Source: a virus. From it: DNA of 64,000 nt. The notes under the pieces were generated by a model that was not told where the DNA came from, did no database searches, and worked only from the letters and a program-made list of their open reading frames with translations. Shown in pieces: positions 13,965 to 25,486 of this stretch (positions are counted from its first letter, which is position 1; each line of letters starts with the position of its first letter). The translations under genes were made by a program, and so were the position numbers. The DNA is taken from UHGV virus genome UHGV-0300374, one strand, 5' to 3'.

Positions 13965-14155
13965 ACCTACCTGCACGATTCTAAAATGATTTTTCTTGCC
14001 CGACCTGAGCGGGGTCTGCACGTTTTGAAAATGAAAAAGCCCTTTGGAGATTACCTGCACAATTTGAAAATGAATTTTCTCTTTGGAGTTCAAAATTTTC
14101 TCTACAGATTTCTCTATAGAAATATACCTGCACAATTCTGAAATGAAAAAGCCCT
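13965..14155. repeat. four direct repeats, consensus ACCTGCACAATTYTGAAAATGA
   Basis: Copies near 13968, 14015, 14053 and 14125 in the non-coding region between the macro-domain gene and the small-gene array. Confidence 0.55.
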
Positions 14156-14219
14156 CCTTACCTGAAAAATTTACCAGATAAGAAAGGCTTAACCTATTGT
14201 GAATATTCTACAGAGTTTC

Positions 14220-15005
14220 TTAGTTCTTTGCGTCTAAGAAGGTAACTTCTGGTGAAGAGAAGATTGCCTCGATATCCTCATCAGTTCTTGCATAGATATA
14301 AGCTTCTGCATCACTACCAAATGTTACAGCAATTCTGTGATTGCTCTTTGACAGGTGGGTAACTAGAGCGTTACTTAGAGACATCTTTTCAACCGGAGGG
14401 TTACTTTGATGTATCTTACCTTTTCTTCGTCTGAAGAGGGTAACTGCATTATCCGTGAACACTGCTACACCTGCAAAGTATTCTGGTTCACAGTAGTTCT
14501 TCCAACCTGAGAGTAACTTGTGGTACATCTCTCCTTCATAGACATATAGATAAACATCTACACTCTTCATAACCTGATTGATGATAACTGTGACGGCTTG
14601 AGAGTCTAGTCCACCGATACCTGCACCAATCATAGGTAACCCAACTTTCTTCAACTGATTGACTTCACAGTATCTGTTAAGTTGTTTCAAAGATGACTCT
14701 AAAGCACTGTATCGGGCATCTTTACCAGTCTTAAGCTGAGTGTAAAGGTTAGCTATACGGCCTTGTTCTAAACGTGCTACAGAGAAATTACCCAGTAAAT
14801 TTTCACAGGGTTTGTGACCTATACCACCTGCATAGAGGTAAACTTCTGTATCGGTCTCATATGCTTTTGGGTAAAGTTTAGAAATCTTGTCAGCGATACC
14901 TGCACCCATTAAATTCATACAGTTGCAACCGTGACCAATAATATCAAACTTACCTTTATCAAATGCTGAGAAGATATCCCCATTGATGATTTTTACAATA
15001 CCCAT
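14220..15005 (-). CDS. macro-domain protein (TARG1/OARD1/DarG-like, ADP-ribose binding or hydrolase) with uncharacterised C-terminal domain of about 110 aa
   Basis: IINGDIF...DIIGHGCNCMNLMGAGIADKI and VGLPMIGAGIGGLD resemble the two glycine-rich ADP-ribose-binding loops of TARG1-type macrodomains. Confidence 0.6.
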   Translation of the reverse strand: MGIVKIINGDIFSAFDKGKFDIIGHGCNCMNLMGAGIADKISKLYPKAYETDTEVYLYAGGIGHKPCENLLGNFSVARLEQGRIANLYTQLKTGKDARYSALESSLKQLNRYCEVNQLKKVGLPMIGAGIGGLDSQAVTVIINQVMKSVDVYLYVYEGEMYHKLLSGWKNYCEPEYFAGVAVFTDNAVTLFRRRKGKIHQSNPPVEKMSLSNALVTHLSKSNHRIAVTFGSDAEAYIYARTDEDIEAIFSSPEVTFLDAKN

Positions 15006-15206
15006 TTAGCATCTCTCCCAAGATTCTTTATCTTCTGAAGGTTTTACACGTTGTCCTTCGTGGTCTACCCAGATACATCCACAACCTTCACAGATTACTG
15101 GCATTGCATAGCCAGCTTTAAAGTCATCTTCAGTGATAAGACCTTTTAAGTCACCTGTATCACGTCCGAACATTTCGATAGAACAGTCTTTGCAGAAGTC
15201 AGCCAT
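15006..15206 (-). CDS. hypothetical zinc-ribbon protein
   Basis: Trimmed to MADFCKDCSIEMFG (ATG at 15206, RBS AGAGG); CxxC...CEGCGC. Confidence 0.4.
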   Translation of the reverse strand: MADFCKDCSIEMFGRDTGDLKGLITEDDFKAGYAMPVICEGCGCIWVDHEGQRVKPSEDKESWERC

Positions 15207-22487: not shown

Positions 22488-24269
22488 TTAAAGCTGCTTG
22501 TCAATATTATTTCGAATATCACCAAGAGTTGTGTAGCCGAACTGCTCAGAGTCACTAAAGACTAGACGTAAAGCACAAGCTGGGTGTTCAAGTGCATCTG
22601 CAAAGCTCTGGAACCCATAGCCATCTACAGCTTTCAGCTTATCACCATCCCACATAGGCGCTACACCACCAAAGGCAGATTTCTTAACACCACTATCTGT
22701 TTTAGGGTCTTTTGCAAGCATAATCTCTTTACCACCAATGCTTGCAAGAGTTGCTTTGACAGCAAATGCAAAGGTGTCACGAGTCATGTACTGGTAAGTG
22801 TAAGAGCCTACACCAAACACTACGTTAGAGCTTGCAAAACCCATTTCATACAGACGCTTCAGGATTTCGTTTGCACGTTCCAGCGTGATAGAGTCGCCAT
22901 AAATAAGTCCAATATGCTCATCCAGTACTTTAAAGCCTTTAGAGTTAATAGTTCCCCCAAAGATGTTGTACAGTGTCTTAATAGCTCCATCAATCTCAGC
23001 TACAGGACGTGTTACAACGTTTGCAGAACCAACCATATAAGCATTTTTCAACATCACTGTATCAGCAACTTCAAAGTCTTCTCTGTCAACAACCATCTCG
23101 TAGCCTTCTGACAGTAGCCATCCAGCAATACCATAGTTGATGTTCTCAAGCTTCATGTTCAGAACAGCATTCAACATTGTGTCACTGGCTTCCAGCTTGC
23201 TTAGGTGCTCGTAATAAGCCTTCTTAGCACATTCTAAGTGGATTGCTTTATAACCTGTGACAATATGTACAGGGTCTCCAGAGTCAGGACGAATTACCAG
23301 TTTGCCATCACGTTCCATAATTTCTTTACGGAGTGCTGGTAAAATTTCTGACACAGTTCTCCAGAAGTTATAAGTGTCTGAAACAACACTTGCAATACCA
23401 GTTGGGTAAGTTTCTGTTAAGAAACGACGGAAGGTTTGTAACTCACCTTTAAAGCGTCTTTCTTCTTCAATCAACTCATTACCACCTTCCCAAGCAATGT
23501 TTGCACACATTACAGAGTGTTCAGTGGCTGGTACAGAACTACCAATATCAGAGATTGGGTAAGACTGTCCATAGATGCGTTTAGCCGTGTATACAGCAGG
23601 GAAGCTATCGGTTCCTTTAAAGCTGGTTAAGTGACCTACAGCGTTAAATGCGTCATCAGTAAAGCCGGACATACCACGCATAGCAAAGTCGTGACACTGA
23701 TAAGGTAAATGTAGGTCGTTGTCACAAGTAAGGTCAGCCCACTTCTTACATATACGTTTGTAGTGCAATGCAATAGTCGCAATGGTGCAAGCCTTCCAAA
23801 TCTCAGCAGAGAAAGCATCTTCCAGATAACCTGCTACCCAATGGAAGCCTGAAACAGTGTTCTGGAAGACAATCATTGGGACACGCATCGGGACAACTGT
23901 ACCTTCTTCTACAGCATATACTTCAACTGGTAGATAACCTAAATCGTGGAGTGCTTCCCAATGCTCTCGACCGATAGCATCTTTGCCCAGAACACCATTC
24001 ATGACTTCTAAGATTTCGTCAATTGCTTCTTTTTTGTCACGTTCAAAGAACGTAGCATTCCAGTGGTCTATCAAGTAATCTTTAACAAAACGTTGAATAC
24101 CAAAAGCGACTACACCATCAATTGCTAATGGACTGTTAAACCATTTGTTGCTACGTGGTGTCAGGTTGAACATCAAATATTCTGTTGCACTAGGGTACTG
24201 GTAAACATGACCAGATTTGTAAGCATCTGCGTTTAAACCTGCTGGTACTGCATAAAGTGATTTAGTCAT
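22488..24269 (-). CDS. nicotinamide phosphoribosyltransferase family protein (Nampt/NadV-like; candidate Namat of NAD+ reconstitution pathway 1)
   Basis: 593 aa; N-terminus ...NADAYKSGHVYQYPSATEYLMFNLTPRS typical of the NAMPT family; adjacent to a Prs-like gene. Confidence 0.85.
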   Translation of the reverse strand: MTKSLYAVPAGLNADAYKSGHVYQYPSATEYLMFNLTPRSNKWFNSPLAIDGVVAFGIQRFVKDYLIDHWNATFFERDKKEAIDEILEVMNGVLGKDAIGREHWEALHDLGYLPVEVYAVEEGTVVPMRVPMIVFQNTVSGFHWVAGYLEDAFSAEIWKACTIATIALHYKRICKKWADLTCDNDLHLPYQCHDFAMRGMSGFTDDAFNAVGHLTSFKGTDSFPAVYTAKRIYGQSYPISDIGSSVPATEHSVMCANIAWEGGNELIEEERRFKGELQTFRRFLTETYPTGIASVVSDTYNFWRTVSEILPALRKEIMERDGKLVIRPDSGDPVHIVTGYKAIHLECAKKAYYEHLSKLEASDTMLNAVLNMKLENINYGIAGWLLSEGYEMVVDREDFEVADTVMLKNAYMVGSANVVTRPVAEIDGAIKTLYNIFGGTINSKGFKVLDEHIGLIYGDSITLERANEILKRLYEMGFASSNVVFGVGSYTYQYMTRDTFAFAVKATLASIGGKEIMLAKDPKTDSGVKKSAFGGVAPMWDGDKLKAVDGYGFQSFADALEHPACALRLVFSDSEQFGYTTLGDIRNNIDKQL

Positions 24270-24314
24270 CTTTTAATCTCTCTCAAAATGGGGCTTTCAA
24301 GCCCCTATAAACTT

Positions 24315-25196
24315 TCAATCAAGGTTTGCTACAGTAACTTGACCATAATGTGTTAAGCCACGGTCTTTAGCTTCGCCTAAAGAGTTTGTAGTGTAAATAT
24401 GGTCGATACCATTGTCAAGAAGGTTTTCAACACCTTTAGAGAAGATACCATGTGTTACATAAAGCTCAACACGTTTTGCACCTGCTTCACGAAGATGTTT
24501 AGCTGCTTCTATGAAGGTTCGACCACCATCACAGATATCATCAAGAATCATAACAGTTTTATCTGTCAAATCAACATCATCAAGGATTCGCATACCAGTA
24601 ATTTCTCCAGTCTTAAGATTTCGCACCTTAGACATTGTGATATATGGTTTATCCACCTCTTTAGCAGTCTCTGCAATCTTCTTAGAAGCACCTGCATCTG
24701 GGGCTACTAAGTAATCAACCAGTGGGTCATTTGCATAGTGGACTGCAATTTCCTTTTGAGGAATACTCTGGAAGCAGTTAAACAGGTTATCTGGTGCATA
24801 ACTGTGAGGGTCAACTGCACAGACTGCACCAAACCCCATTGCATTGACCTGTTTAGCAAAAACCTTTAAAGCTGCTGCATCACCTTTAAACATGTGACGG
24901 TCGTATCGTGCATTTGGCAAGTAGTAAAAAATGACAGTCTTCAGGGCATAATCATGAGGAACTAAATCGTCAATTGCTTCTTTAGCCAGTGCCACAGCAA
25001 ACAGTGTGTCTTTGTCATAACCCTTTACAATCATAACCACATTGTTAATAGATGATGCTGCATAAGCAGTAAAATCAACAAGCTCTTGTGAAAAGTGGCC
25101 ACCAATCTCACCAGAAGGGAATTGGATGATGTTAAACTCTTCTTCATGAGTTCCTTTAGTCGGTGAATGAATTGTGACACGGATAGATGTTTTCAT
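24315..25196 (-). CDS. ribose-phosphate pyrophosphokinase family protein (Prs-like; candidate Adps of NAD+ reconstitution pathway 1)
   Basis: FPSGEIGG near the N-terminus and PRTase loop VMILDDICDGGRT; start trimmed to ATG 25196 (RBS AGAGGAAA), the track start being a TTG. Confidence 0.8.
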   Translation of the reverse strand: MKTSIRVTIHSPTKGTHEEEFNIIQFPSGEIGGHFSQELVDFTAYAASSINNVVMIVKGYDKDTLFAVALAKEAIDDLVPHDYALKTVIFYYLPNARYDRHMFKGDAAALKVFAKQVNAMGFGAVCAVDPHSYAPDNLFNCFQSIPQKEIAVHYANDPLVDYLVAPDAGASKKIAETAKEVDKPYITMSKVRNLKTGEITGMRILDDVDLTDKTVMILDDICDGGRTFIEAAKHLREAGAKRVELYVTHGIFSKGVENLLDNGIDHIYTTNSLGEAKDRGLTHYGQVTVANLD

Positions 25197-25207
25197 AGTT
25201 TCCTCTC

Positions 25208-25486
25208 TCAATCAAAAGTTACGTTTGTTACTGCCATTGCAGATTTGCATTTTACAGGGTCTACAACGTGGTAAAGTACACTACAGTTACCTGTGCTGTC
25301 TGGTACAGGCTTTACCCATTGCTGCTTTATAGTTGGCTCTCCTAAGTCTTTGTAAGAACCATCTGTAAAGTTGTTTACCATCTCAAGTGCAATTGGTTCT
25401 GGAACATGACCACGTATCATGTACATCTCACAACCATTACCTCCTTCACTGACTAATGGTAAAATCTCCCACTTTTCTTTAGCCAT
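25208..25486 (-). CDS. hypothetical protein
   Basis: 92-aa ORF directly upstream of the Prs-like gene. Confidence 0.4.
   Translation of the reverse strand: MAKEKWEILPLVSEGGNGCEMYMIRGHVPEPIALEMVNNFTDGSYKDLGEPTIKQQWVKPVPDSTGNCSVLYHVVDPVKCKSAMAVTNVTFD

Follow-up and report, generated by a model that had tools for sequence, protein, structure and literature searches.

A two-domain macrodomain protein in the early region of a Felix O1-type phage: a candidate counter-defence ADP-ribosyl hydrolase

The window, that is, the whole stretch of DNA that was analysed, comprises 64,000 nucleotides of the virus genome UHGV-0300374, whose source phage is a Felixounavirus (Felix O1-type). A sequence-only reading had proposed here a gene for a macrodomain protein with an additional C-terminal domain (Table 1), and the open reading frame proved to be real, with an ATG start, a product of 261 aa and its coordinates and minus-strand orientation confirmed. 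The product is orthologous to gp13 of Felix O1/FO1a and is matched over its full length by PHROG 335 (E 1.6e-112), a family with members in over 2,800 phage records; at least 80% of it is covered by 257 phage records, and the copies in relatives are annotated as either “phosphatase” or “macro domain protein”. The gene is the last of a minus-strand operon of the early region and lies in the early, host-takeover arm of the genome, beside rIIA/rIIB. On its upstream side, the stop codon of a small CxxC gene abuts its start codon (TAAATG) and a Shine-Dalgarno sequence (GGGAGAG) lies inside the 3′ end of the CxxC gene; the two genes are translationally coupled. As a conserved partner, the CxxC protein was rejected, since the alignment shows it to be kept only in Felixounavirus, Suspvirus, and Mooglevirus and to be absent from distant loci. 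No Pfam family was found in the neighbouring ORFs and no darT gene neighbours the locus, while the downstream gap and its vicinity contained no tRNA and no Rfam family.

Table 1. Features of the macrodomain locus and of the NARP1 pair, with window coordinates and the basis of each assignment
Feature	Residues	Coordinates	Strand	Basis
Complete gene, two-domain protein (macrodomain + orphan C-terminal domain)		14220..15005	-	ORF and PHROG 335 match
N-terminal macrodomain, ALC1-like class (TARG1/DarG/SCO6735/Poa1p)	aa 1-157	14535..15005	-	Pfam, PDB profile, AF2/Foldseek
Loop 1, HGCNCMNLMGAGIA	aa 25-38	14892..14933	-	Invariant columns; DarG alignment
NLYTQ motif	aa 86-90	14736..14750	-	Family alignment; profile alignments
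Diphosphate-binding loop 2, PMIGAGIGGLD	aa 124-134	14604..14636	-	Family and TARG1/DarG alignments
C-terminal orphan domain	aa 158-261	14223..14534	-	Linker helix 158-167, six β-strands, C-terminal helix
Upstream 66-aa CxxC...CxxC protein, phrog_2210		15006..15206	-	Sequence, PHROG; 201-nt CDS in relatives
Terminator-like hairpin, then T-run		14149..14190	-	Sequence; 30 nt past the macro gene stop codon
NARP1 pair		22488..25211	-	Pfam; relatives' annotation
Adps/Prs-like gene		24315-25211	-	Pfam
Namat/Nampt-like gene		22488-24269	-	Pfam

Sequence profiles and a predicted structure together identify the N-terminal half of the protein as a macrodomain of the ALC1-like class and not of the MacroD type. 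The Pfam Macro family (PF01661) matches aa 25-141 with an E value of 2e-7 and 31.4 bits (gathering cut-off 22). In a comparison of the family profile with PDB sequences, the leading matches were TARG1 (6.8e-17), Mycobacterium tuberculosis DarG (3.3e-16), SCO6735 (1e-14), Poa1p (2.6e-14), and Thermus aquaticus DarG (2e-13), while the viral MacroD-like nsP3 macrodomains scored merely ~5e-3. The AlphaFold2 model of the 261-aa protein (pLDDT 89.7, pTM 0.88) has the three-layer α/β/α macro fold and matches 243 PDB macrodomains at E<=0.001 in Foldseek, with TARG1 (E 3e-10, TM 0.84-0.86), DarG (TM 0.78), and Poa1p (TM 0.75) as the best matches. The structural comparison with TARG1 and DarG that the sequence-only reading had proposed thus returned a macro fold, and the ranking by both profile and structure bears out its view of a TARG1-like rather than a MacroD-type domain; the peptides on which that view was built, IINGDIF (aa 6-12), DIIGHGCNCMNLMGAGIADKI (aa 21-41), and VGLPMIGAGIGGLD (aa 121-134), are all present. 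Human TARG1/OARD1 (4J5R/4J5S), the best match among solved structures, has an identical MGAGIA loop and is a eukaryotic protein-glutamate de-ADP-ribosylase. DarG of DarTG2 (T. aquaticus 5M31/5M3E; M. tuberculosis 5M3I) shares the fold (TM ~0.78) and the asparagine of loop 1, and it too is a two-domain protein with the macrodomain at its N-terminus. DarG was moreover the sole model match in PADLOC and NCBIfam, with 47.9 bits for the NCBIfam DarG equivalog NF048014 (cut-off 250 bits; model positions 4-151 of 338 matched) and 47.5 bits for the PADLOC DarG model (positions 17-146 of 329). The macro half is strongly conserved, with a dN/dS of ~0.04.

The “TARG1/DarG-type” label of the sequence-only reading held for the fold class and failed for the catalytic type. 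In loop 1, H25 and N28 are invariant in the family alignment, and N28 aligns with N22 of DarG and N23 of PhiKZ AdfM. The NLYTQ motif, invariant in all 29 family members aligned and present also in T4-type Tk.4, stands opposite YLITK in the profile alignment, and with a family member aligned to M. tuberculosis DarG, IANLYTQ stands opposite IINFPTK. These alignments place Gln90 at the catalytic-lysine position of TARG1 (K84), DarG (K80), and PhiKZ AdfM (K78). In loop 2, P124, G127, and G129 are invariant and TARG1 D125 aligns with G131, so that the Lys84-Asp125 dyad of TARG1 is missing and replaced by Q90 and G131, two positions that are (nearly) invariant in the phage family. A glutamine at the catalytic-lysine position together with an invariant H25-x-x-N28 is the pattern of SCO6735 from Streptomyces coelicolor (PDB 5E3B), which is also ALC1-like and has Gln and H-x-x-N without the Lys/Asp dyad; the equivalence of Q90 with SCO6735 Gln85 was drawn by transitivity through TARG1 and DarG. 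In SCO6735, Gln85 is essential (Q85A and Q85E are inactive; H24 and N27 mutants were also studied), and the enzyme cleaves DarT-made dT-ADPr, not dG-ADPr, and rescues Escherichia coli from DarT. By this analogy, the glutamine of the phage protein would be compatible with hydrolysis of thymidine-linked ADPr. SCO6735 itself is a bacterial chromosomal stress-response enzyme of a single domain.

Because the catalytic lysine is missing, we also considered a catalytically dead reader or sponge of ADP-ribose that would either sequester ADP-ribose or serve as an adaptor by way of its C-terminal domain. The protein does lack the counterparts of TARG1 K84 and D125 and of DarG K80, and mutants of SCO6735 and DarG still inhibit DarT by interaction alone. 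We regard this as very improbable, however, given that, among the dT-ADPr hydrolases of its class, the glutamine-type SCO6735 shows the highest activity, for which it needs Gln85, that Adpp of Vibrio phage Gary, with glutamine at the same position, is an active enzyme, and that the invariance of H25, N28, T89, and Q90 and a dN/dS of 0.04 fit an enzyme.

Two of the three roles that the sequence-only reading had put forward for the protein (reversal of DarT-type DNA ADP-ribosylation, destruction of an immune signal, and supply of ADP-ribose to NARP) have experimental precedent in PHROG 335, namely anti-DarTG2 activity (T4 Tk.4) and conversion of ADPR-1''-P to ADPR for NARP1 (Adpp). T4 Tk.4 (AdfM) shares 33% identity (79 bits) with the 261-aa protein over the macrodomain, and its active-site motifs (HGCNC / NLYTQ / IGAGIG) are identical; both are orphan phage genes of the early region with no toxin adjacent, and they differ in that Tk.4 is a single domain of 155 aa whereas the Felixounavirus protein has ~100 aa more at its C-terminus. 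Knockout of tk.4 specifically sensitised T4 to DarTG2, hence the name adfM, for anti-DarT factor Macrodomain (HIDEN-SEQ preprint, 10.1101/2025.11.20.689424); the evidence is genetic, and it is by inference that the study has Tk.4 remove ADPr enzymatically.

The window also carries a NARP1 pair, an Adps/Prs-like and a Namat/Nampt-like gene (Table 1), so that the NARP module placed 8 kb away by the sequence-only reading is real. NARP1 was first described in the Felixounavirus Bas63 (genes 79-80), so that the archetypal system is carried by this very phage type, and accessory enzymes that feed NARP1 have precedent (e.g., RyDEP). In Vibrio phage Gary, which likewise encodes NARP1, Adpp (gp137) converts ADPR-1''-P to ADPR for NARP1 and is needed to overcome aRES (bioRxiv 10.64898/2026.01.28.702374). 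An Adpp-like enzyme in the present phage would convert the ADPR-1''-P left by NAD+ phosphorolysis by the RES-domain protein (aRES) into linear ADPR, from which the phage Adps and Namat would rebuild NAD+. We consider this a less likely but serious possibility, and it need not be exclusive of DNA de-ADP-ribosylation because one enzyme could do both. Gary Adpp belongs to the same broad Poa1p-like/ALC1-like phage macrodomain family, also has glutamine at the catalytic-lysine position, and shares 27% identity (54 bits) with the Felixounavirus protein and 34% (74 bits) with T4 AdfM; Poa1p is about as close as DarG by profile and fold, and the “phosphatase” annotation of relatives points the same way. 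All three active-site segments differ, however, between Gary Adpp (HQCNC / NVYGQ / IGCGLAG) and the present protein (HGCNC / NLYTQ / IGAGIGG). Among the NARP1-linked macro proteins of Table S1 of the Adpp paper, ~105 (~85%) are of the YGQ type and ~13 (~10%) of the YTQY type, compared with TQ in 29 of the 29 members of our family alignment. The TQ signature therefore occurs beside NARP1 too, as in the NARP1-linked protein of Acinetobacter phage phiAbaA1 (HGCNC/NAYTQ), and Escherichia and Salmonella phages, Felix O1-type included, do not appear in the list of NARP1-adjacent macro genes in that table.

Genomic position also argues against an Adpp-like role. Adpp is defined as lying within two genes of NARP1 (10.64898/2026.01.28.702374), and the gene for Gary Adpp, a single-domain protein, sits between those for Adps and Namat. 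The macro gene, by contrast, lies some 15 genes and 7.5 kb from its NARP1 pair in a separate operon, with rIIA, rIIB, and roughly twelve further genes in between, and thus outside the two-gene range of Adps/Namat. A small-molecule phosphatase would furthermore leave the extra conserved binding domain without an obvious reason, and T4 tk.4, which has the same signature, shows a DarTG2 phenotype. T4 is not known as a NARP1 phage, which is a further point against such a role.

Taking these observations together, we tentatively favour, at somewhat less than even confidence, an early-expressed phage counter-defence enzyme that acts by DNA de-ADP-ribosylation, which would make it, as with T4 Tk.4, an “orphan antitoxin” of the AdfM type. 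This role is placed ahead of the ADPR-1''-P phosphatase because the invariant glutamine is that of SCO6735, because the motifs are those of T4 AdfM and not of Gary Adpp, and because the gene lies outside the NARP1 pair. The gene itself, its fold and class, its active-site residues, its family membership, and the spread of and selection on the C-terminal domain are results of the analysis; what the enzyme acts on, its part in counter-defence, and whatever the C-terminal domain does are inferred. Mechanistically, the N-terminal macrodomain would bind ADP-ribose and hydrolyse the bond at the ribose C1'', the likeliest substrate being the ADP-ribose put on thymidine of single-stranded phage DNA by the host DarT2, and its removal would restore replication and transcription. 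His25, Asn28, and Gln90 would be the key residues of a glutamine-type mechanism like that described for SCO6735, in which the glutamine orients the substrate and the reaction itself is carried out by an activated water, rather than of a lysine nucleophile as in TARG1/DarG. The C-terminal ~100 residues, predicted to pack against the macrodomain, are probably a binding or targeting domain, directed at DNA, at some part of the replisome, or at a defence protein of the host (e.g., DarT).

The destruction of some other ADP-ribose conjugate would be a further way to counter host defence. Hydrolysis of a Thoeris-type signal (2'/3'cADPR, His-ADPR), of O-acetyl-ADPR, or of ADP-ribose on protein or RNA modified by other host ADP-ribosyltransferase defences would erase the immune signal or the modification. 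Macrodomains are versatile and act on ADPr both in soluble form and in conjugates, and those of phages have been predicted to target chiefly low-molecular-weight ADPr derivatives; TARG1 and SCO6735 also de-modify proteins, and Thoeris II effectors bind His-ADPR through macrodomains. Both characterised members of the family nevertheless indicate DarT2 or ADPR-1''-P, the literature searched connects no family member with Thoeris, protein targets, or RNA targets, and the ThsA macro models of PADLOC do not match the protein, which leaves such a substrate improbable.

Several measures were also tried for placing the protein as AdfM or Adpp within the phage family. In a neighbour-joining tree (200 bootstraps), the Ounavirinae proteins group in a clade of their own (74%), which is connected with T4 AdfM by no supported node; with less than 40% support at the deep nodes, the tree failed as a means of clade assignment. 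Pairwise scores are alike (79 bits for T4 AdfM, 77 bits for Pakpunavirus NARP1-linked proteins). The DarG HMM score was likewise rejected as a separator (44.6 bits for Gary Adpp versus 47.5 bits for the present protein): Gary Adpp matches the DarG models equally well, so DarG-likeness is family-wide and hence not diagnostic. Counted towards an AdfM-type role were the ALC1-like class, membership of PHROG 335 with Tk.4, the DarG-only model matches, and the TQ signature, as well as the separate operon, the early arm, and the dN/dS of 0.04; counted against it were the tree, the near-equal bit scores, the family-wide DarG-likeness, and the TQ signature of ~10% of NARP1-linked proteins, together with the benefit that the phage's own NARP1 would draw from an ADPR-1''-P phosphatase.

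The comparison also brings out a matter of naming. PhiKZ gp104, the AdfM of chimalliviruses, is likewise an orphan phage macrodomain that counters DarTG2, and its removal of ADPr from DarT2-modified DNA was shown biochemically (PMC13309987). It belongs, however, to another lineage of lysine type (FPTKDNW; N23, K78), with 25% identity and 27 bits to the Felixounavirus protein and 133-138 bits against the DarG models. Two unrelated lineages thus now share the name AdfM, a lysine-type, DarG-like one in chimalliviruses and a glutamine-type, SCO6735-like one in T4 and here.

Felix O1-type phages find wide use against Salmonella and E. coli in biocontrol and therapy, and also for typing these bacteria. 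The gene puts them in a macrodomain family with two counter-defence activities reported in 2025-2026 (anti-DarTG2 and anti-aRES), and it offers a natural test case for substrate choice, with a T-Q versus a G-Q signature and a position inside versus outside the NARP1 operon. A literature search found no Felixounavirus macrodomain tied to a function and no experiment on this or any other Ounavirinae orthologue.

The C-terminal part, in which the sequence-only reading had seen no recognisable motif, indeed spans ~100 residues for which no relative could be recognised. It is restricted to Ounavirinae-type phages and never occurs apart from this macrodomain; when 1.84 billion representatives were searched exhaustively by HMM, the only proteins matched were macro fusions. 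Pfam at E<=10 gave nothing for this domain and 14 divergent members, apart from six unrelated single-member matches; the C-terminal profile found merely weak, β-propeller-blade-like matches among PDB sequences (BamB, SQT1), and in BFVD the domain matches its own family alone. Large multi-stretch matches to PQQ-like β-propellers or to a repeated retrotransposon polyprotein were set aside as repeat-summed artefacts. It bears no relation to the domain with which DarG binds DarT, since the DarG model positions above ~150 are unmatched.

This domain evolves under purifying selection (dN/dS ~0.27, versus 0.04 for the macro half), which rules out diversifying selection, and none of its invariant residues looks catalytic. 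A DNA-mimic or DNA-binding domain was rejected on its isoelectric point, which ranges from 4.75 to 9.46 across orthologues, and therefore no conserved charge backs either. The domain is β-rich and possibly PH-like, and it is probably a non-catalytic binding module. More speculatively, and rather unlikely on present evidence, it could be a second, non-enzymatic counter-defence module that binds and inhibits DarT2 or another defence protein, or anchors the hydrolase on ssDNA or at the replisome; or the glutamine-type macrodomain could itself be bifunctional, combining repair of DarT2-modified DNA with dephosphorylation of ADPR-1''-P for NARP1. If the former is true, the protein would be a convergent, structurally unrelated analogue of the two-domain DarG (eraser plus toxin binder) and an invention of the Felix O1 lineage; if the latter, one protein would link two anti-defence routes. 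The domain is compact, conserved, and well predicted, and its partner could reveal a new mode of targeting or inhibiting defence. One apparent standalone copy of the domain (P0030, 114 aa) retains the macrodomain end VDVYLYVYD and is therefore a truncated ORF call.

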